Made by a program: the position numbers and the translations under genes
Shown: positions 8,331-60,174 of the stretch, piece after piece
How positions within the stretch are numbered: position 1 is the first letter of the stretch
How the letters are laid out: every line of letters starts with the position of its first letter
Assembly: GCA_947626365.1 (NCBI GenBank)
Contig: CANQRW010000008.1
Location: forward strand, 3,111 to 67,110
From: an uncultured Lachnospiraceae bacterium
Lineage (GTDB): Bacteria > Bacillota > Clostridia > Lachnospirales > Lachnospiraceae
Length of the DNA: 64,000 nt
Direction of reading: 5' to 3'
The notes under the pieces: generated by a model
Database searches by the model: none
What the model was told of the DNA's origin: nothing
The model's input: only the letters and a program-made list of their open reading frames with translations

Positions 8331-8433
8331 GCCGCCCTGCCTTCGCCATTACTTTTTTCGGCCGCCCTGTCTGCGCCATTGCTTTTGCGGTCGTCCCGCC
8401 TGCGCCATTGCTTTTTACGGCCGCCCTGCCTGC
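8331..8433. repeat. Tandem ~30-bp degenerate repeat, about 3.5 copies
   Basis: Units GCCGCCCTGCCTTCGCCATTACTTTTTTCG-like start at 8331, 8361, 8390 and 8420. Confidence 0.85.
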
Positions 8434-20809: not shown

Positions 20810-21566
20810 GTACGCGCTTTCGGACGTTTCATCCCTTCCCGATCCTTTGACGAACGCCTCTGCCCTCACAGGCATTCCAGCCTGGCGTCAGGCTTATATC
20901 CTGCGCTATCGGCGCCCGGAGGACCGCAGGCGCAGCCTTGGCGTCTGGCGGCTGATGGAAAATATGCTGGCCGCGCGCGGCTTTCAGGCGCAGGACGTCA
21001 TCGCGGACAGCCGCGGCAAACTCTGCTGCGACGGTATTTTTTTCAGCCTGTCCCACGCAGGCGACCTGGCCCTGTGCGCCGTGAGCGGCGTGCCGGTAGG
21101 CTGCGACATCGAGCTGGTCAAAGACGCGCCCTTAGAGATCGCGCCGCGCATCTTTTGCCCGGGCGAACGCGCATATCTGCGCAATGCCCGGGACGACAAA
21201 GAGGCCCAGAGGCGTTTTTTCACGCTCTGGACCCTCAAAGAAAGCTATATGAAAATGACCGGCGAAGGCCTCGGCCTCGCGCCGGAACGGCTGGAAATCC
21301 GCATGGCCGCCTCTGGCCCCGCACCGGAACAGCCGGAGATCCGCATGGCCGCACCTGGCCCCGCGCCGGAATGGCCGGAAATCCGCATGGCCGCCTCTGG
21401 CCCCGCGCCGGAACAGCTTGGAACGCAGACATCTGCCCTCACCCTGCTCCGTGACGGCGTAACGCAGTCATGCACGCTCTTTCACACCGCTTACGGCGAG
21501 TATGAACTCTCCCTGTGTGTATCTAATCTTCACCCGCAATTCGCGCTTCGTCAGCCCTCTGCGTAG
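20802..21566 (+). CDS. Sfp-type 4'-phosphopantetheinyl transferase
   Basis: FSLSHAG, PVGCDIE and FFTLWTLKESYMKMTGEGL motifs. Overlaps the upstream gene. Confidence 0.92.
   Translation: MVEYALSDVSSLPDPLTNASALTGIPAWRQAYILRYRRPEDRRRSLGVWRLMENMLAARGFQAQDVIADSRGKLCCDGIFFSLSHAGDLALCAVSGVPVGCDIELVKDAPLEIAPRIFCPGERAYLRNARDDKEAQRRFFTLWTLKESYMKMTGEGLGLAPERLEIRMAASGPAPEQPEIRMAAPGPAPEWPEIRMAASGPAPEQLGTQTSALTLLRDGVTQSCTLFHTAYGEYELSLCVSNLHPQFALRQPSA
21282..21419 (+). repeat. In-frame 42-bp tandem repeat x3 in the PPTase
   Basis: CCGGAACGGCTGGAAATCCGCATGGCCGCCTCTGGCCCCGCA-like units encode PExxEIRMAAxGPA three times. Confidence 0.9.
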
Positions 21567-41509: not shown

Positions 41510-41569
41510 AAATACAATCCTCCTTTTTCAATCATAATCGTATAAGCAGGCCGCCATAATCGGGACCGC

Positions 41570-41672
41570 TGTAATTAAAGCTATTGTAATCAGAGCCGCT
41601 GTAATCAGAGCCGCTGTAATCAGAGCCGCTGTAATCAGAGCCGCTGTAATGGGGCAGACCCGGGTCTGCCCC
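41570..41672. repeat. 15-bp tandem repeat (TGTAATCAGAGCCGC x4 plus degenerate copies) next to a perfect 10-bp-stem hairpin
   Basis: Exact units at 41585, 41600, 41615 and 41630, followed by GGGGCAGACC-CG-GGTCTGCCCC at 41651-41672. Confidence 0.92.
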
Positions 41673-44392: not shown

Positions 44393-44439
44393 AGACAATC
44401 TCCTCCTTTTCTCAAGCCGTTCGTCTCCCTGCCTGATCA

Positions 44440-44567
44440 TCTCCTGCCAGGCGGCTTCATCTGCCGTTTCATCGCCTGTCAGGCAGCTTCATCCGCCATT
44501 TCGTCTCCTGTCAGGCGGCTTCATCCGCTGCTTCGTCTCCTGCCAGGCGGCTTCACCCGCTGCCATC
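44440..44567. repeat. 32-bp tandem repeat x4, intergenic
   Basis: TCTCCTGYCAGGCGGCTTCATCCGCYRYTTCR-like units at 44440, 44472, 44504 and 44536. Confidence 0.9.
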
Positions 44568-52016: not shown

Positions 52017-53024
52017 TTAACCGGTTATCAGCGCTCCGCTGCCGTCGAAGGTATAATCTGCGCCATCGATGTTCTTCGTAACGCCGCAGGCCATCTTGCC
52101 GTCCGGCTCCAGATAATAGGTCTTATCCCCCAGAGTCAGCCAACCGGTCTTGATCCGATAGTCCTTCACATAATACCAGGTATTGTCCGCCAGTTTCCAG
52201 CCCTCCGCCGGAATCAGGGCCCCGTAATCCACAAAGGCGTACTCAATCGCTACATTGCCGGCGATTCCGTTTACCGTCCCGCTGTCTGTACACTGCCAGA
52301 TGGTCCGGTTGGGACACGTGCTGTCGGAGCCGTAGCGGGCGAACCAGATATCATAGGGTTCGCCGGAATCGGATACCAGCTTCGACACGTCCAGATAGCT
52401 GTCCAGCCAGTTCTTGTTGGTATAGACCATAGGCCGGTACCCTGCCTGCCGGATAATATCGCAGAAAATCTTCGCGTGACTGGTGATCTGCTCCCTGGTC
52501 AGGCCGTTGTCCAGCAGATACTGGGATTCCACGTCATAGGCCACCGGATAGGAAATCGGATAATCCTTAATCTGGCTCAGGACAAAATTCGCTTCCTCAG
52601 CCACTGCCTCATCGGTCAAAGCCTGAGTGTAGAAGAACACGCCGGTTTTGATCCCGGCCGCCGACGCCCCCGTCATATTCTGCTGGAAATAAGGGTCCAG
52701 ATCGTTCAGATAGCCAAGACGCACCATGGCAAAACTGACGCCGGAATTCCTCACCTGCTGCCAGTCGATGCCTCCCTGGCTCTCGCTGGCCCGGTTCTGA
52801 TATTTGCTGACGGAGATTCCCTTCGCCACTGCGCCCTCGACCACATTGCCGCTGCCGTCCACAAAGGCGACAGGGCCGGAAAACATGGGCATCGTCGATA
52901 TGCCTGGCCCACCCGGTCCGTCTGCCCAGGCCGTCAAAGGCGCCGCAAGGCTGACCGCAGTGATCAAAGCCGCCAGAGCAGCTGTCTTTCCGGAATTTTT
53001 TCTCCCCCATCCGCATTTTCTCAT
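52017..53024 (-). CDS. GH25 lysozyme/autolysin with C-terminal cell-wall-binding repeats
   Basis: Signal peptide, GISVSKYQ..IDWQQV, PVAYDVE, IWQCTDSG and CW repeats. Confidence 0.88.
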   Translation of the reverse strand: MRKCGWGRKNSGKTAALAALITAVSLAAPLTAWADGPGGPGISTMPMFSGPVAFVDGSGNVVEGAVAKGISVSKYQNRASESQGGIDWQQVRNSGVSFAMVRLGYLNDLDPYFQQNMTGASAAGIKTGVFFYTQALTDEAVAEEANFVLSQIKDYPISYPVAYDVESQYLLDNGLTREQITSHAKIFCDIIRQAGYRPMVYTNKNWLDSYLDVSKLVSDSGEPYDIWFARYGSDSTCPNRTIWQCTDSGTVNGIAGNVAIEYAFVDYGALIPAEGWKLADNTWYYVKDYRIKTGWLTLGDKTYYLEPDGKMACGVTKNIDGADYTFDGSGALITG

Positions 53025-53109
53025 AATATCTGCCTCCTTTTCCATCCGAAGCGAAACCGGTTCGCTCCGATTGGTACGTCATTTATTCTCTCTGATCCGT
53101 CCCGGGAAA

Positions 53110-56100
53110 TCACTCCAGCAGTTTCAGAATCTCCTCATAGCTTAGGCTTCCCAGTGAAATCTCATCGCCGGCGATCACCTGCTCCGCCAACCGCTCCTTT
53201 GCCCTCTGCAGGTTCAGAATATTCTCCTCGATAGTCCCCTTGGAAATCAGCTGGACCACCGTGACCGTCTTCGTCTGTCCGATGCGGTGGGTCCGGTCCG
53301 TGGCCTGATTCTGGGCCGCCACGTTCCACCAGGGATCGTAATGGATCACCATATCCGCCGCCGTCAGGTTCAGTCCCGTACCTCCCGCTTTCAGGGAAAT
53401 GAGAAACACCGGCGTGTCATCCTTCTGAAAGGCATTTACCAGGCGGATCCTCTCCTCCTTGGGCGTCTGGCCCGTCAGCATATAATATCCAATTTCCTCC
53501 CTGGCCAACCGCTCCGCGATCCGGTCCAGCATGGAGGTGAACTGGGAGAACAGAAGAATCTTGTAGCCGGAATCCACCGCTGAGCGCACTACCTCCATAC
53601 ATGTCTCCAGTTTGGCGGAACCGTCGGCATAATCCTCATATACCAGGCCGGGATCGCAGCACAGCTGCCGCAGGCGGGTCAGGGCTGCCAGAATCTGAAT
53701 CTTATTCTCGTCCCCGCCCTGCTCCAGCTGCCGCTTCAGCTTCCAGGCGCTTGCCGTATACAGCTCCTTCTGGCGCCCTTCCATCTGAGAATACACCACG
53801 GTATTCAGTTTCTCCGGCAGCTCCTTAAGCACCTGGCCTTTCAGGCGGCGCAGAATGAACGGACCTGTCATCCGCCGCAGAAGCTCCAGCGCCTCCTTGT
53901 TATCCTCCCGGACAATGGGAGACTCAAATGTGTTCTTAAACCGCTGATAAGAATACAGAAATCCCGGCATCAGATAATCAAAAATACTCCACAGCTCGCT
54001 GAGCCGGTTCTCAATGGGAGTTCCCGTCAGGGCGTATTTTGTCACCGCGCGGACGGCCTTCACCGCCTGAGCGCTCCGGGTCGATGGGTTTTTAATATAC
54101 TGGGCCTCGTCAATGATCTGGAAACGGAACTCTGTCTTCTGATAAAAATCCAGATCCCGCCTCAGCAGGTCGTAGGAGGTGATCACCACCTGGTACTCCG
54201 TTATACGGCGCAGCTTCTCTTCCCGCTCCGCCGCCGTTCCCACAATCAGAAGCGTCCTTAAGGACGGAGTAAATTTCTGGATTTCATATTCCCAATTATA
54301 TACCAGAGATGCAGGGCAGACAATTAAGGAAGTTTGAAGATTTCCTTTCAATCCTTCATCATAGAGAACGGACAGGACCTGCAGCGTCTTTCCCAGCCCC
54401 ATATCGTCTGCCAGGATCCCGCCGAAGCCATAGAAATCCAGGGTCCTCAGCCAGCGGAATCCCGCTTTCTGATACCCCCGCAGCACCTTCTCAAATCCTG
54501 GCGGAATCTCAAAATCGCTGTCCTCCACCGATTTCATACCGCGGACAATGGCCTTGAACCTCTGATTCCGTTCCAGACGGATATCTCTCCGGTCCCGATA
54601 CAGGCTGTCCAGAAAGAGGGCCCTGTACCTGGGAACCCGGATCCGGTTCTTCTGAATATCCGGCCCGGACACGGCAAGACCGTCCATCATCCTGGATACG
54701 GTCATCAGACCGTTGTCCTCCAGCCGGAGAAATTCTCCTGATTTCAGCCGGTAATAAGACCGTTTCTCGTGGTAAGCCTCCAGCACCCGGACCAGCTCCT
54801 CGCCGCTTAGATTTCCCGCTTCTACCGTCAGTTCCAGCCAGTTTCCCTCTGCCTGGATACCCACAGACACATTTCCGGCAGGAAGAACCTTCAGGCGGCT
54901 TATATTTTCCGGAATCACCACTTCTCCCAGGGCTTTCAGCTCCTCGATTCCCTCCGTGAGGAGACGGTAGACCGCAGCCTCATCATCCCGGATGACCAGG
55001 TCCCCGGTCCGGGAATCCCGATATTTAAAATACCGCGTCAGCGCCTGGCTGATCCGAAATTCTCCCGGCACGTCACGGCAGATACTTCCGGGCACACGTT
55101 CATCATCCAGCGGATGAAAGGAATAGGAGCCGTAGCTTAACGTGGGATGAAGGATTACCTGCCCGGCGTCCGGACTTTCCAGAAGAAATCTGGCCGTCAG
55201 CTCCGCCGGCCGATACCGGTCCAGTTCCACGCCGTCCACATCCAGTATGCCGAAATCCTCCAGTTTTCTCAGCACCCTCTCATAAAACAGCGGTATGTCC
55301 TTTTCATTCACCGTCACCTCATAGGGCGCTCCGTAACCCTGGGTCATCAGCCGGAAAAATACTTCCATCCCGCGGCTGAAAGCCTCGTCGCAGAGATATA
55401 GCCGGCCGCCTCGGATAATATAAAGAAGGGACTCCCCGTTAAAACTGGTAATCTCCTTGTCCAGAAATACCCGGATTCCTTTCGCGCCGGCTTTCCTCAC
55501 ATGAATCTCCAGCTCCGGATTCTCCCGGACTACCAGAAGCTTCTGTTTCTCGCCCAGGTGATTTTCCGTCTCTATCTCCTGCCCCGTAAGCAGCCGGAAG
55601 AACCGGTCCCTGCGGATCCGGCTCAGATTCAGCTGGCGCAGAGCCGGCACCGCCGCGTAAAGGCTTTTCTTAAATTCGATAAAATGTTCCCGGAACGACT
55701 CGGAAAGTTCCAGCACCATGTCAAGCATCTGCCGGGAACCCTCAGAGAACGCCTCACGGCTGTGATAAAATGCCAGTTCCCTTCCGTACTCCACCAGACT
55801 GCCCTTCGCCACGGCCTCGGAGAACGCCACCAGATCCTTTACCAGGTACAGCCGTTTTCTCCCCACACGGAATTCCACCCGGATTTCCTGACGGCCGAAC
55901 AGCAGGCGGGGCACCAGTTCCACCGGTTCCTCTTCCTCCTTCTCCGCGATCGCCGCCACTTCCCGGTTGGTATATTCCCGGATCATGTTCCGTACCTGGA
56001 GTGAAGTGGACACCTGCCGTTCCGGCTCCCCTTCCGCTTTCCTCCTGTAGAAATCAAACATGGCTTTCTCATGGGGACAAAGCCCCTTATAAGACGTTCC

Positions 56101-56247
56101 CTGATCACACGAACAAGAGCAGCTGTTGATATTGCTGCCCTTGATCTCCAGTCGGACCCGGTATTCACGACCGCCATCCTGTACCAGGCCCTCCACTCCG
56201 ACTTCCCCTTTCCAGAAAGTCTTTATTTCCATTTTTGAAACCCGCAT
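53110..56247 (-). CDS. SNF2-family helicase with N-terminal SWIM zinc finger
   Basis: CSCSC..CPH, LADDMGLGKT, IIDEAQ, LTGTPIENR, SLKAGGTGLNL and QATDRTHRIGQ. Start moved to ATG 56247 (GGAGGTG RBS). Confidence 0.93.
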   Translation of the reverse strand: MRVSKMEIKTFWKGEVGVEGLVQDGGREYRVRLEIKGSNINSCSCSCDQGTSYKGLCPHEKAMFDFYRRKAEGEPERQVSTSLQVRNMIREYTNREVAAIAEKEEEEPVELVPRLLFGRQEIRVEFRVGRKRLYLVKDLVAFSEAVAKGSLVEYGRELAFYHSREAFSEGSRQMLDMVLELSESFREHFIEFKKSLYAAVPALRQLNLSRIRRDRFFRLLTGQEIETENHLGEKQKLLVVRENPELEIHVRKAGAKGIRVFLDKEITSFNGESLLYIIRGGRLYLCDEAFSRGMEVFFRLMTQGYGAPYEVTVNEKDIPLFYERVLRKLEDFGILDVDGVELDRYRPAELTARFLLESPDAGQVILHPTLSYGSYSFHPLDDERVPGSICRDVPGEFRISQALTRYFKYRDSRTGDLVIRDDEAAVYRLLTEGIEELKALGEVVIPENISRLKVLPAGNVSVGIQAEGNWLELTVEAGNLSGEELVRVLEAYHEKRSYYRLKSGEFLRLEDNGLMTVSRMMDGLAVSGPDIQKNRIRVPRYRALFLDSLYRDRRDIRLERNQRFKAIVRGMKSVEDSDFEIPPGFEKVLRGYQKAGFRWLRTLDFYGFGGILADDMGLGKTLQVLSVLYDEGLKGNLQTSLIVCPASLVYNWEYEIQKFTPSLRTLLIVGTAAEREEKLRRITEYQVVITSYDLLRRDLDFYQKTEFRFQIIDEAQYIKNPSTRSAQAVKAVRAVTKYALTGTPIENRLSELWSIFDYLMPGFLYSYQRFKNTFESPIVREDNKEALELLRRMTGPFILRRLKGQVLKELPEKLNTVVYSQMEGRQKELYTASAWKLKRQLEQGGDENKIQILAALTRLRQLCCDPGLVYEDYADGSAKLETCMEVVRSAVDSGYKILLFSQFTSMLDRIAERLAREEIGYYMLTGQTPKEERIRLVNAFQKDDTPVFLISLKAGGTGLNLTAADMVIHYDPWWNVAAQNQATDRTHRIGQTKTVTVVQLISKGTIEENILNLQRAKERLAEQVIAGDEISLGSLSYEEILKLLE

Positions 56248-56271
56248 GGACACCTCCGTCTCCATGGAAAC

Positions 56272-56660
56272 ACTCGCGCAAGCTCTATTCGCAAAATCGC
56301 CTCTTCGGGGCTTTCCGCTGCTTCGCAGCTCCTTTTTGCTCATATTCTTGCGCTTGAGCCCGCCTGCATTCCACGCACCAGTTCACTCGCGCAAGCTCTA
56401 TTCGCAAAATCGCCCCTGCGGGGCTCTCCGCTGCTTCGCAGCTCCCTTTTGCTCATATTCTTGCGCTTAAACTCGCTCGTATCTTGCACACCAGTTCACT
56501 CGCGCAAGCTTTATTCGCAAAATCGCCCCTGCGGGGCTTTCCGCTGCTTCGCAGCTCCCTTTTGCTCATATTCTTGCGCTCCCTTCGCCGTCATCTGTCC
56601 GGGCAAATCTCTATGCGAGCATAGATTTGCCCGGACAGATGACGGCGAGTGAACTGGTGC
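56272..56660. repeat. Inverted-repeat-bounded element: three ~113-bp tandem units plus a long hairpin
   Basis: An 83-bp core starts at 56272, 56385 and 56498. (G)CACCAGTTCACTCGC occurs at the unit junctions and its reverse complement GCGAGTGAACTGGTGC at 56645-56660. A hairpin of about 30 bp lies at 56585-56649. Confidence 0.93.
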
Positions 56661-56661
56661 T

Positions 56662-58584
56662 TTACATCCGTTCCGGCGCCTCAAATCCCAGAAGATGAAT
56701 GCAGGTTTCCAGCACTTCCCTGGTGAGAGTGATCAGCTGAATGTAGCCTGCCTTCTTCGTCTCGTCTTCCTCTTTCAGAATCATGGTCGTATTGTAAAAG
56801 CTGCCGAAGGCATCGGACAGTTCATAGATAAACTGGCAGATCTTGTGAGGAGCCGTCTCCGCAAAAGCAGTCTCCACCACCTCGTTGTAGGCGGACAGCT
56901 TTAACATCAGGTTCTTGGCCTCCGCCGAATCCGCGGGAAGGATTCCCACAGACGCCGGCGTGATCCCGGTGCCGGAGCCTCCGCTCTGTTCCGGAACCAT
57001 TTTCCCGTAAGCCCCGCCGGGCGCAGAAACCGCTCCGTCTGCGCCTTCCCCGGCCTTTCGGCCTTCCTCATATTTGGCAAGAATGGATTTGATCCGCACA
57101 ATGGTATACAGGACATAGGGCCCTGTATTGCCCTCGAAGGAGGTGAACCGGTCAATATCAAACACATAGTCCTTGGACACCTGATTGGACAGATCGCCGT
57201 ACTTTAAGGCTGCCAGGCCGATGATCCGGGAAGTCTCTTCCGCCTCCGCCTGATCCATGGTCCGGTTCTCCATAATCCGGTCGTACACCGCGTCGTCGAT
57301 CTCTTTCACCAGCTTCTCAAGACGCATGACGCCGCCCTCTCTGGTCTTGAAGGGCTTTCCGTCCTTTCCGTTCATAGTGCCGCACATCATATGGATCATC
57401 TTTGTCTCCGGCTTCACGTAGCCGGCCTTCTTGGCTACCCGGAACACCTGAATGAAATGCAGTTCCTGCCGCTTGTCCGTAATATAGATATACTGAGTGG
57501 GCTGATAATCCTTCTCCCTCTCAATGATAGTTCCCAGATCGGAGGTGGCATAGAGAGCCGCGCCGTCGGATTTGCGGATAATGCAGGGCGGCAGTTCCTT
57601 GGGATCTCCCTCCTGGGCGATATCCACCACCAGGGCCCCTTCGCTCTCGTAAGCCAGCCCCTTGTCCTGCAGGTCCTGAATCAGCCACGGAATGTAGGGC
57701 TGGGCGTCGCTCTCGCCCTTCCACAGATCAAAGGTCACTTCCAGGCTTCCGTAATTCTTCTTCAGATCCGCCAGAGACACGTTCATGATATGACGCCAGA
57801 TCGCCCGGAATGGCTCATAGCCGTTCTGCAGCTTAAAGGTCGCTTCCTGGGCCCTGGCCCGAAACGCCTCATCCTCCTTGGATCTGGCGCTGGCAGCCGG
57901 ATAAATCTCTTCCAGCTCGCTTATGGTAAAGGGCGCTTCCTTCGGATATTCGCCTTTATAGTTCTCGTCAAAGTAAGGCAGATTCGGCTGTCTGTCCCGC
58001 AGCTCCTCAATGATCAGCCCCATCTGCAGTCCCCAGTCCCCCAGATGGACGTCTCCGATCATATGGTATCCCAGGAAATTGCCCAGCCGCTTGATGCACT
58101 CCCCGATAATGGCGGTCCGCAGATGGCCTACGTGGAGAGGTTTGGCCACATTGGCCCCGCCGTAATCCACGATCACCGTCTTATTCTGTCCCACGTTCTC
58201 CGCGCCCAGCTTGTCCGCCGCCTTCATCCGGTTCAGATATCCGGCCAGATACTCGCCGCTCAGCTTCAGATTGATAAATCCCGGCATGACCGCGCTGATA
58301 TCGGAAAACATTGCCTCACACTCTGCAGGGCCGTCTTCCGCGCATACGGCCGCATCCGTCTGACACGCTCCCTTGCCCTTCAGGTAATTTACCACATCCG
58401 CGGCAATATCGATGGGCTTTTTGTGGTACGCCTTCGCCGCCGCCATGGCTCCGTTGCACTGGTACTCGCACAGATCCGGCCGGTTGGAAAGCGTCACTTT
58501 ACCATAAGACGCATCATATCCGCAGGCGGCAAACGCCGCCCTCATCTCTTCCGCAATACAATCAAGAATCTTCTTCAATGTCAC
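56662..58584 (-). CDS. argS: Arginine--tRNA ligase
   Basis: DYGGANVAKPLHVGHLR (HIGH), KSDGAALY, KTREG and GNTGPY motifs. Confidence 0.97.
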   Translation of the reverse strand: MTLKKILDCIAEEMRAAFAACGYDASYGKVTLSNRPDLCEYQCNGAMAAAKAYHKKPIDIAADVVNYLKGKGACQTDAAVCAEDGPAECEAMFSDISAVMPGFINLKLSGEYLAGYLNRMKAADKLGAENVGQNKTVIVDYGGANVAKPLHVGHLRTAIIGECIKRLGNFLGYHMIGDVHLGDWGLQMGLIIEELRDRQPNLPYFDENYKGEYPKEAPFTISELEEIYPAASARSKEDEAFRARAQEATFKLQNGYEPFRAIWRHIMNVSLADLKKNYGSLEVTFDLWKGESDAQPYIPWLIQDLQDKGLAYESEGALVVDIAQEGDPKELPPCIIRKSDGAALYATSDLGTIIEREKDYQPTQYIYITDKRQELHFIQVFRVAKKAGYVKPETKMIHMMCGTMNGKDGKPFKTREGGVMRLEKLVKEIDDAVYDRIMENRTMDQAEAEETSRIIGLAALKYGDLSNQVSKDYVFDIDRFTSFEGNTGPYVLYTIVRIKSILAKYEEGRKAGEGADGAVSAPGGAYGKMVPEQSGGSGTGITPASVGILPADSAEAKNLMLKLSAYNEVVETAFAETAPHKICQFIYELSDAFGSFYNTTMILKEEDETKKAGYIQLITLTREVLETCIHLLGFEAPERM

Positions 58585-58659: not shown

Positions 58660-60174
58660 TTACTGGATCCACGCGCCGTCCGCGCCGACTTGATAGCCGT
58701 CGGGCGTTGTGGTGTTCACCAGAAGAGATCCGAGCGGTCCGCCCTCTGCCTCGCTGAAATAATACCACTTTCCATCGATCTCATGCCATCCGGTATACAT
58801 ATATCCCTGTGTGCCGTCCGGCTTATCATGCAGGAAGTACCGGTTCCCGTCCGCATCCGTAAGCCATCCGCTTGTCATGTAGCCACCCGCATCAAAGTAA
58901 TACCAGCTGGTCTTGCCCTGCCACTCAAGCAGATTCCAGCCGTTTGACGGGTAAGTGCCGTCCTTATAACGGTACCACCAGCCCTTTTCCCCGGCTTCCC
59001 AACTGCCGAAGGATTCAGGCGTGGATGGCGGCGCGCTGTAGCTGTCGTCCTCGTCGGAGGAAGAACTGCTGCCGCCGCTATAAGGGGCGGCGACCACCTC
59101 GACCCAGAAAGGATGCTTAGATTCCAACCCGCCATTTAATTCGCGAACCAGATAGAACTCTGCAGATGCTCCCTCGGTGGATTTTTTGCCGGTAATGATC
59201 ATAGAATCGCCATCCGGCCCCATTTTACAGTCCAGATATCCGCTGACTGTCGGGCCGATCTCGAACCCATCGAACGGATAGCCGTTAAAGGACACCCTGA
59301 CAGACTCTCCCACTGGCAGACTCTTGACTCCCACCCAACGGTCATTGCCTTCTTCATCCTGATAATATTTGTGTTCAAAAATCTCATATTGGGAAGGAAC
59401 GATAAGGGCTTCACCAAAGCCGCCGAAATCATCGGACACCGGAACCCGCTGGCTGGAATAAGCATAGTACGAAAGCCAATAGTAAAGCTCGCCGCGAGTC
59501 ACATATACTCCTTCTGCTCCGATACCTGGGTCAATATAGTCTGCCGGAATCGCAAGCGTGATCTCATGTCTTTCACCCATCTGATAGCTGCAGTCGAGAT
59601 CCTTTGTGCTTACCGGGGAATCGTCCTTGAATCCGTGCGCCTTAGGAACAACAGAATACAGGACGCATTGAACGTAGCGGCCGCCGTCCTCCATCTCGAC
59701 CTGCTCAAGTTTCACCTCTACGAAAACCTCTATCTTATCGACGTCCCCGCCATCAAAAAGCTGCGCGATTTCATTTCCGTGCTGCTCAGCGATCGTTTTC
59801 GCCACATCGGCCAGGACGGTTTTGTTCTTGTCTGATTCCAGCAGAGCTTTAAACTTGCTTATCATCTCTGCGTCCAGCCCTTGGGGGAAGACGATTTTGC
59901 CATCCGCTGATATGATTTCTGCGGCATCGGAACCGTCCTTGTTTCCGGACTCCCTATCGGCATCACTCGGACTTGCCACACGGTAACTGCTCTCGTTTTT
60001 GACCTTCTTACTGGCATTACTTGGACTTGCCACAGGGTGACCGTCGGGAGTTCCCGCCGCAGCGCCTGTATCCGCAAATCCCGTAACAGATATGTTTGCC
60101 GCCAACAGAGCCGCTATAAGCGCGACGGCAGTGATTTTTTTCAGTTTCATCCTCATAATTCTCTTCCATCTCAT
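58660..60174 (-). CDS. Secreted surface protein with C-terminal cell-wall-binding repeats
   Basis: Signal peptide, ASPSNA/ASPSDA motifs, a Ser-rich linker and WYYFD..GYM..GW repeats ending TPDGYQVGADGAWIQ. Confidence 0.85.
   Translation of the reverse strand: MRWKRIMRMKLKKITAVALIAALLAANISVTGFADTGAAAGTPDGHPVASPSNASKKVKNESSYRVASPSDADRESGNKDGSDAAEIISADGKIVFPQGLDAEMISKFKALLESDKNKTVLADVAKTIAEQHGNEIAQLFDGGDVDKIEVFVEVKLEQVEMEDGGRYVQCVLYSVVPKAHGFKDDSPVSTKDLDCSYQMGERHEITLAIPADYIDPGIGAEGVYVTRGELYYWLSYYAYSSQRVPVSDDFGGFGEALIVPSQYEIFEHKYYQDEEGNDRWVGVKSLPVGESVRVSFNGYPFDGFEIGPTVSGYLDCKMGPDGDSMIITGKKSTEGASAEFYLVRELNGGLESKHPFWVEVVAAPYSGGSSSSSDEDDSYSAPPSTPESFGSWEAGEKGWWYRYKDGTYPSNGWNLLEWQGKTSWYYFDAGGYMTSGWLTDADGNRYFLHDKPDGTQGYMYTGWHEIDGKWYYFSEAEGGPLGSLLVNTTTPDGYQVGADGAWIQ

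Follow-up and report, generated by a model that had tools for sequence, protein, structure and literature searches.

A tandemly repeated block behind argS in an uncultured Lachnospiraceae bacterium is probably an immobilised copy of an IS66-type miniature transposable element

What is the block of about 400 bp, with three structured cores and two unlike linkers, that stands between argS (arginyl-tRNA synthetase) and a gene for an SNF2-family helicase on the minus strand of contig CANQRW010000008.1 from an uncultured Lachnospiraceae bacterium (assembly GCA_947626365.1)? The window, that is the whole stretch of DNA analysed, comprised 64,000 nt of this contig, and coordinates refer to it unless a locus or contig handle is given. 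The genome of the window, a 144-contig draft, is designated G000. A preliminary description, made from the letters alone, had offered two readings, a non-autonomous element like a miniature inverted-repeat transposable element (MITE) or a bacterial interspersed mosaic element (BIME), with modular amplification, or a family of structured RNAs transcribed with argS-SNF2. It had also remarked on an array-like layout. The block is real and is a broadly ordinary kind of repeat. It is probably an old copy, inherited vertically, no longer mobile and amplified in place, of a non-coding MITE family of gut Lachnospiraceae whose members are about 160 nt long. Membership of the family, the mobility of the family, its cognate insertion sequence (IS), the empty site and the order of the amplification events were each established by comparison between genomes.

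The core of the block was searched for beyond its own locus. Its invariant core word was found at more than 118 loci in public genomes, almost all from Lachnospiraceae (genera named were Acetatifactor, Gallintestinimicrobium, Dorea, Mediterraneibacter, Kineothrix and Roseburia). Typical copies are about 156 to 160 nt long and are bounded by GTAACAGTTCAG.../...CTGAACTGTTAC or by GTTACAGTTCAC.../...GTGAACTGTAAC. The covariance modelling proposed in the preliminary description was carried out on 50 non-redundant copies and hits were counted at E ≤ 1e-5. The resulting model matched 75 of 301 genomes (74 of 300 genera) of the bacterial family to which the window belongs, and the window itself scored 148.7 bits. 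Copies per genome reached at least nine and were identical in some genomes.

Movement of the family is recorded in two genomes. At least 16 paired copies were present in G188; six of the nine that were fetched are 100% identical, and eight or nine carry perfect AT-rich 8-bp duplications. In G058 (Gallintestinimicrobium propionicum), 43 exact 13-mer ends were counted against 0 in the control, together with many 8-bp duplications. Copies in both genomes have 14-bp perfect ends, and deletion derivatives in G058 retain both ends. Several copies from G058 and a human-gut metagenome-assembled genome (L191, L206, L106, L145 and L185:2100-2300) have, beyond the 8-bp duplication, the initial 7–25 nt of another copy's left end (GTTACAG...), which suggests insertion beside existing ends or collapsed tandem dimers.

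The autonomous partner was not among the 118 fetched loci, where pairs of MITEs flank just ordinary genes (GH2, ROK, GT4). It was reached by way of unpaired ends at contig tips. Contig C75 of G188 terminates in the right end of the MITE, GGCTGAACTGTTAC, and encodes a 487-aa protein matching PF03050 (DDE_Tnp_IS66) with 73.5 bits. This transposase scored 149.5 bits against NCBIfam NF033517, under the cut-off of 180, and is therefore assigned to a divergent branch of IS66. An intact IS of 1,829 bp was found in G052, a member of the genus of the window. Its transposase is 74% identical to that of C75, its 26-bp inverted repeats start GTAACAGTTCAGCC, and it is flanked by a perfect 8-bp duplication, GCGGCCGG. 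PF03050 matches in G000 and G058 were rejected as the partner because their ends differ. Elements of the IS66 family are marked by an 8-bp duplication and by ends beginning GTAA. The family is a MITE of an IS66-type element: the single-ORF (open reading frame) IS of G052 and the family have the same 14 terminal bases and the same 8-bp target duplications. Unlike such an IS, the element of the window is non-coding, its interior is unrelated to that of the IS and its ends have drifted. The first reading of the preliminary description was thereby supported, with a dispersed family, inverted ends, target duplications, identical copies and a transposase-bearing element with the same ends in G052 and on C75 of G188, not in the genome of the window.

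The layout of the locus is given below, in the order in which it is read on the minus strand.

56662–58584, minus strand: argS, arginyl-tRNA synthetase (Pfam tRNA-synt_1d, DALR_1 and Arg_tRNA_synt_N).
56645–56660, minus strand: left end of the element, 5' strand of helix P1 (left inverted repeat), GCACCAGTTCACTCGC, from repeat analysis.
56585–56648, minus strand: long hairpin P2, with a perfect 26-bp stem, a 2-nt bulge, a 4-bp apical stem and a CUCG loop (AUGC UCGC AU), from repeat analysis and fold.
56502–56580, minus strand: core 1 (domain P3), with base stem GCGCAAG/CUUGCGC, an AUGAGC/GCGAAU internal loop with tandem G-A, and stem GCAAAA/UUUUGC.
56489–56503, minus strand: right end, first copy (3' strand of P1), GCGAGTGAACTGGTG, from repeat analysis.
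56469–56488, minus strand: linker 1 (L1), 20 nt, TGCAAGATACGAGCGAGTTT, homologous to the linker of the sister species G048.
56389–56468, minus strand: core 2, 98% identity to core 1.
56375–56390, minus strand: right end, second copy, GCGAGTGAACTGGTGC, from repeat analysis.
56356–56374, minus strand (20 nt if counted as 56375–56356): linker 2 (L2), (C)GTGGAATGCAGGCGGGCTC, matching the G048 linker at 14 of 21 positions.
56271–56355, minus strand: core 3 (95% identity; one mismatch in the second small hairpin) with a shortened right end, GCGAGTG (56277–56271); it holds the ATG of a false ORF at 56343–56341.
56245–56257, minus strand: ribosome-binding site GGAGG (56257–56253) and the ATG taken as the true SNF2 start (56247–56245), from alignment of the N-terminus with relatives.
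53110–56247, minus strand: SNF2-family helicase gene (Pfam SNF2_assoc, SNF2-rel_dom and Helicase_C; SWIM-like CxCxC..CPH N-terminus).

The stop codon of argS (TAA, 56664–56662) is separated from the element by a single A at 56661. Because the C-terminus LLGFEAPERM* is identical in relatives with and without the element, this TAA is the natural stop of argS. The left end is complementary at 16 of 16 positions to the end of unit 2 (56375–56390) and at 15 of 15 to the end of unit 1 (56489–56503). The arms of the 26-bp stem of P2 are 56648–56623 and 56610–56585, and core 1 also has two small hairpins, GCUGC-GAA-GCAGC and GCCCC-GCA-GGGGC. Three 113-nt units follow one another (56609–56497, 56496–56384 and 56383–56271), reported by Tandem Repeats Finder as 2.7 copies with 91% matches and a score of 508. 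Each unit comprises a core of about 79 nt, then GCGAGTG(AACTGGTG), then a 20-nt linker; the third stops at GCGAGTG. The sequences of L1 (56488–56469) and L2 are unlike each other. The preliminary description had thus read the architecture correctly, including complementary ends 1 bp past the argS stop, a hairpin of about 30 bp with a 2-nt bulge (located here as a stem of 26 + 4 bp), three structured cores with a common ending and two dissimilar segments of about 20 bp between them. It had further pointed to core hairpins and to an ATG that falsely lengthens the SNF2 ORF. The mechanically listed ORF does begin at the core-3 ATG (56343). In relatives, whether or not they carry the element, the start at 56247 is preserved in the motif MR(V/I)..M..(K/R)TFWKGE, and on this alignment the true start is 56247, which corrects the gene model.

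The history of the insertion was read from relatives. The order argS-SNF2 is syntenic genus-wide with a spacer mostly of 3–60 nt. Most members of the genus have no element there and present the empty site proposed for comparison; in G051, the closest such relative, the spacer measures 21 nt. The element occupies the spacer in seven species (G000, G048, G004, G054, G022, G009 and G050) and falls into two sequence types; decayed rear remnants stand beside the SNF2 start in G002, G049, G013 and G021. Between the two types P1 has changed by two compensated pairs (GTTCACTCGC/GCGAGTGAAC to GCTCACCCGC/GCGGGTGAGC), and the stem of P2 is wholly different yet still paired.

The number of units varies among these species. 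G000 has three, G048 has about 1.5, and G004, G009 and G022 each have one full unit with one or two partial ones; the partial extra copies of other species have different boundaries. G048 retains the head (P1 and P2), unit 1, a single linker and a core with an internal GAGC...GAGC deletion. Its linker is chimeric, with a 5' half like L1 and a 3' half like L2, and all seven of the 21 positions at which it differs from L2 are transitions. The chimeric linker and the deleted core indicate that the three-unit array is older than the split between G000 and G048, and that G048 lost one unit in register. The layout of one head and several bodies recurs in an unrelated genome after the stop of another gene (L067, 4 x 117 nt), and further tandem forms were found at L044 (2.2 x 162 nt) and in G072 (four full copies). 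Amplification is therefore a recurrent property of the family, as the notion of modular amplification had implied. The linkers are homologous to each other and to that of G048; they are drifted duplicates of a single ancestral segment without a pairing partner, not acquired spacers. The alternation of core and linker thus goes back to tandem duplication and later drift of the unpaired segment.

Taken together, the following course is proposed. In a common ancestor of some species of the genus, a copy would have inserted right behind the argS stop, inside the spacer of the argS-SNF2 operon. As comparison between species shows, the stretch of 113 nt at its rear, which comprises linker, P3 core and right end, was later duplicated through slippage or unequal recombination to give one head and three bodies, and G048 lost one unit in register and part of another. 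Since G000 has no cognate transposase, the copy in the window is stranded. Its fold, as RNA or as single-stranded DNA, probably matters in cis, for example as an element of RNA stability or processing, because the head and the first core are under constraint. The extra cores are decaying by-products; core 3 has a mispair, the second core of G048 is deleted internally, and fragments remain elsewhere.

The second reading of the preliminary description, a family of structured RNAs, found support in the covarying interior of four stems and in its relationship to an Rfam motif. As a whole, the 425 nt have a folding energy of −201.6 kcal/mol (z = −10.7 relative to shuffles, far beyond chance). The family fold, drawn from the 50-copy alignment, consists of four stems, namely the end-to-end helix P1, the long hairpin P2 with its UGCUYGCA tip, and the branched domain P3. 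It is well supported: the paired share of cells is 87.6%, compared with 72.7% in shuffles and 34–44% in slid controls, and two-sided changes occur in 37 of its 60 pairs.

A permissive cmscan search aligned positions 1–166 of RF01699 (Clostridiales-1) to 56655–56493 with 37.5 bits (E = 2e-6), below the gathering threshold of 48 bits. No match at the Rfam threshold was found in 18 loci with typical family members, bar a different neighbouring element in Dorea hominis (76 bits). RF01699 and the element of the window share a closing helix, a GCUUGC-tipped long hairpin and the AUGAGCA/UGCGAAU stem, and these parts are conserved in the 50-sequence alignment. The AUGAGCA...UGCGAAU stem of RF01699 aligns onto core 1. 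The apical xUGCUYGCAx of P2 is kept in the family and in RF01699, while the stem below it varies in sequence with compensating changes. Both occur in the same taxa (Clostridiales, gut bacteria), and neither has an assigned function. The 33-nt 3' hairpin of RF01699 is missing from the element (3 nt in the alignment), and the two small hairpins in the interior of P3 are additional to the plan of RF01699. On these comparisons the family is a sister family, or cousin, of Clostridiales-1 and not a member of it. The Clostridiales-1 motif itself is listed only as a probable RNA of Clostridiales and the human gut, not as cis-regulatory (Weinberg et al. 2010, PMC2864571). The literature searched contained no description of the present family or its IS66-type partner, of Lachnospiraceae MITEs or of a function for Clostridiales-1.

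Two observations concern the distribution of Clostridiales-1 modules. The 3' hairpin and closing strand of RF01699 occur in G000 as a separate dispersed short repeat of about 12 copies, AGGATTGCGGGAGCGCAAAGCGCGGAGCAATCCGTGCATCA then TAGGGGTCAAAATAC, scoring 27–45 bits, all below threshold (loci L014–L026; examples are G000:C11:2475-2626, C35:30668-30824, C25:12633-12707 and C15:36525-36599). In Dorea hominis NSJ-36 (L070:124-381) the bona fide Clostridiales-1 motif, at 187–316, lies between two cores of the window family, so that related sets of modules are interleaved.

Two other identities for the core were tried and rejected. A small ORF (ATGAGCAAAA..., with GGGAG upstream) is excluded as coding by indels of 1–4 nt directly after the ATG and by non-synonymous compensated changes in its hairpins. 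A resemblance to the hammerhead ribozyme (AUGAG...CGAA), judged by eye against the hammerhead core, failed on the required CUG before AUGA, which is absent.

How far the fold serves the host was weighed on the conservation of inherited copies and on their placement. At the argS site the divergence of the core is 0.02–0.16, against 0.16–0.53 at argS four-fold sites, and that of the head is intermediate. G000 and G048 differ by four stem substitutions, which pair up as two compensated changes in the 26-bp stem. The second family locus of G000, in the grpE-dnaK spacer on contig 13, holds a head-less copy; between it and its G022 counterpart there are 7 mismatches in 117 positions, whereas four-fold sites diverge by 0.53. 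These values argue for selection on the head and first core, and the excess of conservation over the synonymous sites of argS hints at a function.

The grpE-dnaK copy itself (G000:C13:43096-43236; L004, about 1300-1740) has an extra 45-nt hairpin in its 3' strand and is flanked by direct repeats of about 39 nt (GCCGTGAGGCGAAGCATGAGGTTAGTCGAGCGGAACAAG) and by more copies of the TTAGCGAAYGCGAGCC motif. The same site is filled in G002 by a full copy and in G022 by one whose 5' part is deleted, where the grpE stop TGA lies inside the AUGAGCAAAA motif.

Older, diverse copies were further examined for their position relative to genes. The upstream co-directional gene stops 0–6 nt before CAGTTCA in 22 of 32 cases, in ten of which the TAA of the element's own end is the stop of the gene; convergent genes end that close to the other end in 0 of 25. 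Upstream genes that were checked are intact to the last positions of their Pfam models (RuvA, SpoIVA, IspD, GtrA and a short-chain dehydrogenase). Fresh insertions in G188 stand at stops once in nine in sense and twice in nine in antisense. Since these fresh copies have no sense bias, the pattern at stop codons is likelier to reflect survivorship, or a trait of a subfamily, than homing.

A reason for such survivorship may lie on the antisense (plus) strand. Between 55800 and 57200 this strand has five sites of terminator-like hairpin and T-run, against 1.4 expected from shuffles, and each core read in antisense gives GCUGCUUCGCAGC then UCCCUUUUGC, with the look of an intrinsic terminator (56317–56329, 56430–56442 and 56543–56555). 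Such sites could block antisense transcription or transcription of inverted copies, and inverted copies within operons would on this prediction be polar. No promoter or terminator was predicted on the sense strand. Because of this, and because the ancestral spacers are operon-like and the ribosome-binding site of SNF2 is retained, the element is probably co-transcribed in the argS-SNF2 mRNA.

The strongest rival to the proposed explanation, with which it overlaps, is that the block serves the host above all, as a structured RNA acting in cis in the argS-SNF2 (and grpE-dnaK) mRNAs, and that its mobile relatives would be a mere delivery vehicle; it could be a 3' stability barrier, an RNase III processing site that uncouples the cistrons, or a platform for protein binding. 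At two loci the conservation of orthologous copies exceeds that of argS four-fold sites by a factor of 3–10, and each of the two pair changes that distinguish the 26-bp stems of G000 and G048 is fully compensated. The crowding of older copies behind co-directional stops of intact genes points the same way, as does the sense strand, which is the better folder in 49 of 60 copies. Template-switch (quasipalindrome) mutation can, however, keep long palindromes perfect without selection. Extra cores and heads are decayed or deleted in several species, the majority of the genus lives without the element, the fresh G188 insertions have no preference for sense at stops, and the excess of G:T over A:C mispairs is not significant. 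As an account of the block as a whole, the cis-acting RNA is a possibility of some substance but a doubtful one.

A related and more general proposal is put forward tentatively, as rather unlikely: that the branched fold of the IS66-type MITE family is a working module, of RNA or single-stranded DNA, selected once it lies in sense behind a stop codon. This would explain why orthologous copies at argS and dnaK diverge several-fold less than synonymous sites, why stems change by compensated pairs only, and why old copies, not fresh ones, lie in sense at stops. If it were true, motifs of the Clostridiales-1 type would be a mobile toolkit of 3'-untranslated and intercistronic RNA elements in gut Firmicutes.

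The reading of the block as an immobilised and amplified MITE has its own difficulties, and the following observations weigh against it. The left end in the window matches the end of the family and its IS, GTAACAGTTCAGCC, at 10 of 14 positions, having drifted, and no target-site duplication was detectable at this old copy. G000 contains neither a cognate transposase nor such an IS (the best match has 32% identity) and has two family loci only, argS-SNF2 and grpE-dnaK. The strong conservation of orthologous copies is unexpected for junk DNA. In G054 and G022 (L162 and L163) a tract of 95–100% identity runs from about −113 to +127 around the argS stop, covering the element and the last ~110 nt of argS, with flanks about 80% identical and four-fold sites 46% different; this could be the outcome of recombination rather than selection, or of unusually strong constraint. 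G:T mispairs do not significantly outnumber A:C mispairs (77 against 62, on a column-based structure), and with so weak an asymmetry the RNA-level and DNA-level readings of the structure are inseparable. Lastly, homology of the linkers to the 3' arm of P2 is not significant (p = 0.09–0.86); it is suggestive for L1 (AGAT-ACG-GCGA), whose derivation from that arm is plausible on sequence.

The three cores could instead derive from serial, independent MITE insertions at the same stop-proximal site, with older copies losing their heads. The rear-half remnants beside the SNF2 start in G021, G013, G002 and G049 are homologous to the partial second copy of G009 and G050, and the family copies trailed by the beginning of another copy after their target duplication would be in keeping with such a history. 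Units 2 and 3 have no trace of a left end or hairpin, however, and the period of exactly 113 nt, the 95–98% identity of the cores and the mutual homology of the linkers all speak for duplication in place. Repeated, precise deletions of heads would be unparsimonious, and serial insertion is considered improbable.

It is also very improbable that the count of three units is an artefact of short-read assembly. The genome is a draft, and units that are 91–98% identical and 113 nt long are near read length. Fixed differences between the units and the distinct linkers nevertheless anchor the assembly, the two-unit form of G048 with its L1/L2 chimeric linker requires a three-unit ancestor, and other assemblies also contain tandem forms.

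A true repeat-spacer array of an RNA-guided, CRISPR-like system, with the 20-nt linkers as guides and the SNF2 helicase as effector, is barely credible. In its favour is only a superficial likeness: repeats of 93 nt stand three in a row, the two 20-nt linkers between them are unlike, and a helicase gene is adjacent. The preliminary description had thought the layout worth testing. Against the array, the linkers are homologous to each other and to that of G048, gave zero exact matches in 2.9 million viral contigs and zero second sites elsewhere in G000 at three or fewer mismatches, the housekeeping pair argS-SNF2 is syntenic without the element across most of the genus, and the same cores stand singly at unrelated loci.

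Two features of the surrounding window are recorded for completeness. Choline-binding (cell-wall-binding) repeats are encoded in both outer neighbours of the argS-SNF2 pair, 52017–53045 and 58660–60174 (both minus strand), one of which is a GH25 lysozyme-type enzyme. Further tandem repeats lie at 21268–21417, 44437–44560, 8331–8433 and 41543–41654 (42 nt x 3.6, 32 nt x 3.9, 30 nt x 3.5 and 15/45 nt, respectively).

The locus ties a fold like that of Clostridiales-1, as a cousin of a 16-year-old orphan Rfam motif, to the life cycle of a mobile element with IS66-type ends, 8-bp duplications and a partner transposase. This is relevant to the annotation of "sRNA" matches in gut Firmicutes. The locus also illustrates that plain tandem duplication can yield a layout of repeats and variable linkers. 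The question that it raises is why inherited copies in housekeeping operons are so strongly conserved and so often placed in sense at stop codons.

A modular MITE with an RNA-like fold is an already known kind of element. In Proteobacteria the repetitive extragenic palindromic (REP)/BIME, enterobacterial repetitive intergenic consensus (ERIC) and Correia elements are small, structured, co-transcribed intergenic repeats, mosaic or tandem, with variable linkers, located after genes in operons. The window family resembles them in its small size, its structure, its mosaic or tandem arrangement with variable linkers and its placement after genes inside operons. It differs from REP/BIME in having neither the 35-nt unit of the REP type nor a GTAG tag; no link to a RAYT transposase was seen, and the family instead has a DDE (IS66-type) partner and 8-bp duplications.

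The other close parallel is with the pneumococcal BOX elements, boxA-(boxB)n-boxC, which are modular and vary between strains in the tandem number of boxB; 36 genes are reported to take their stop codon from a BOX element (Croucher et al. 2011, PMC3049150). The likeness is one of analogy only, and no sequence relationship is expected. Both are MITE-like, modular intergenic repeats with complementary ends and a predicted stable RNA fold, and in both an internal module changes in tandem number between strains, by slippage or by unequal crossover. In either case the stop codons of intact genes are often provided by the element or lie next to it, and spurious ORFs are created. The BOX module sits between two fixed ends, whereas the module amplified in the window includes the right end, giving one head and several bodies. 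A further difference from BOX is that the partner IS of the window family has been identified, by identical ends and by the length of the duplication.

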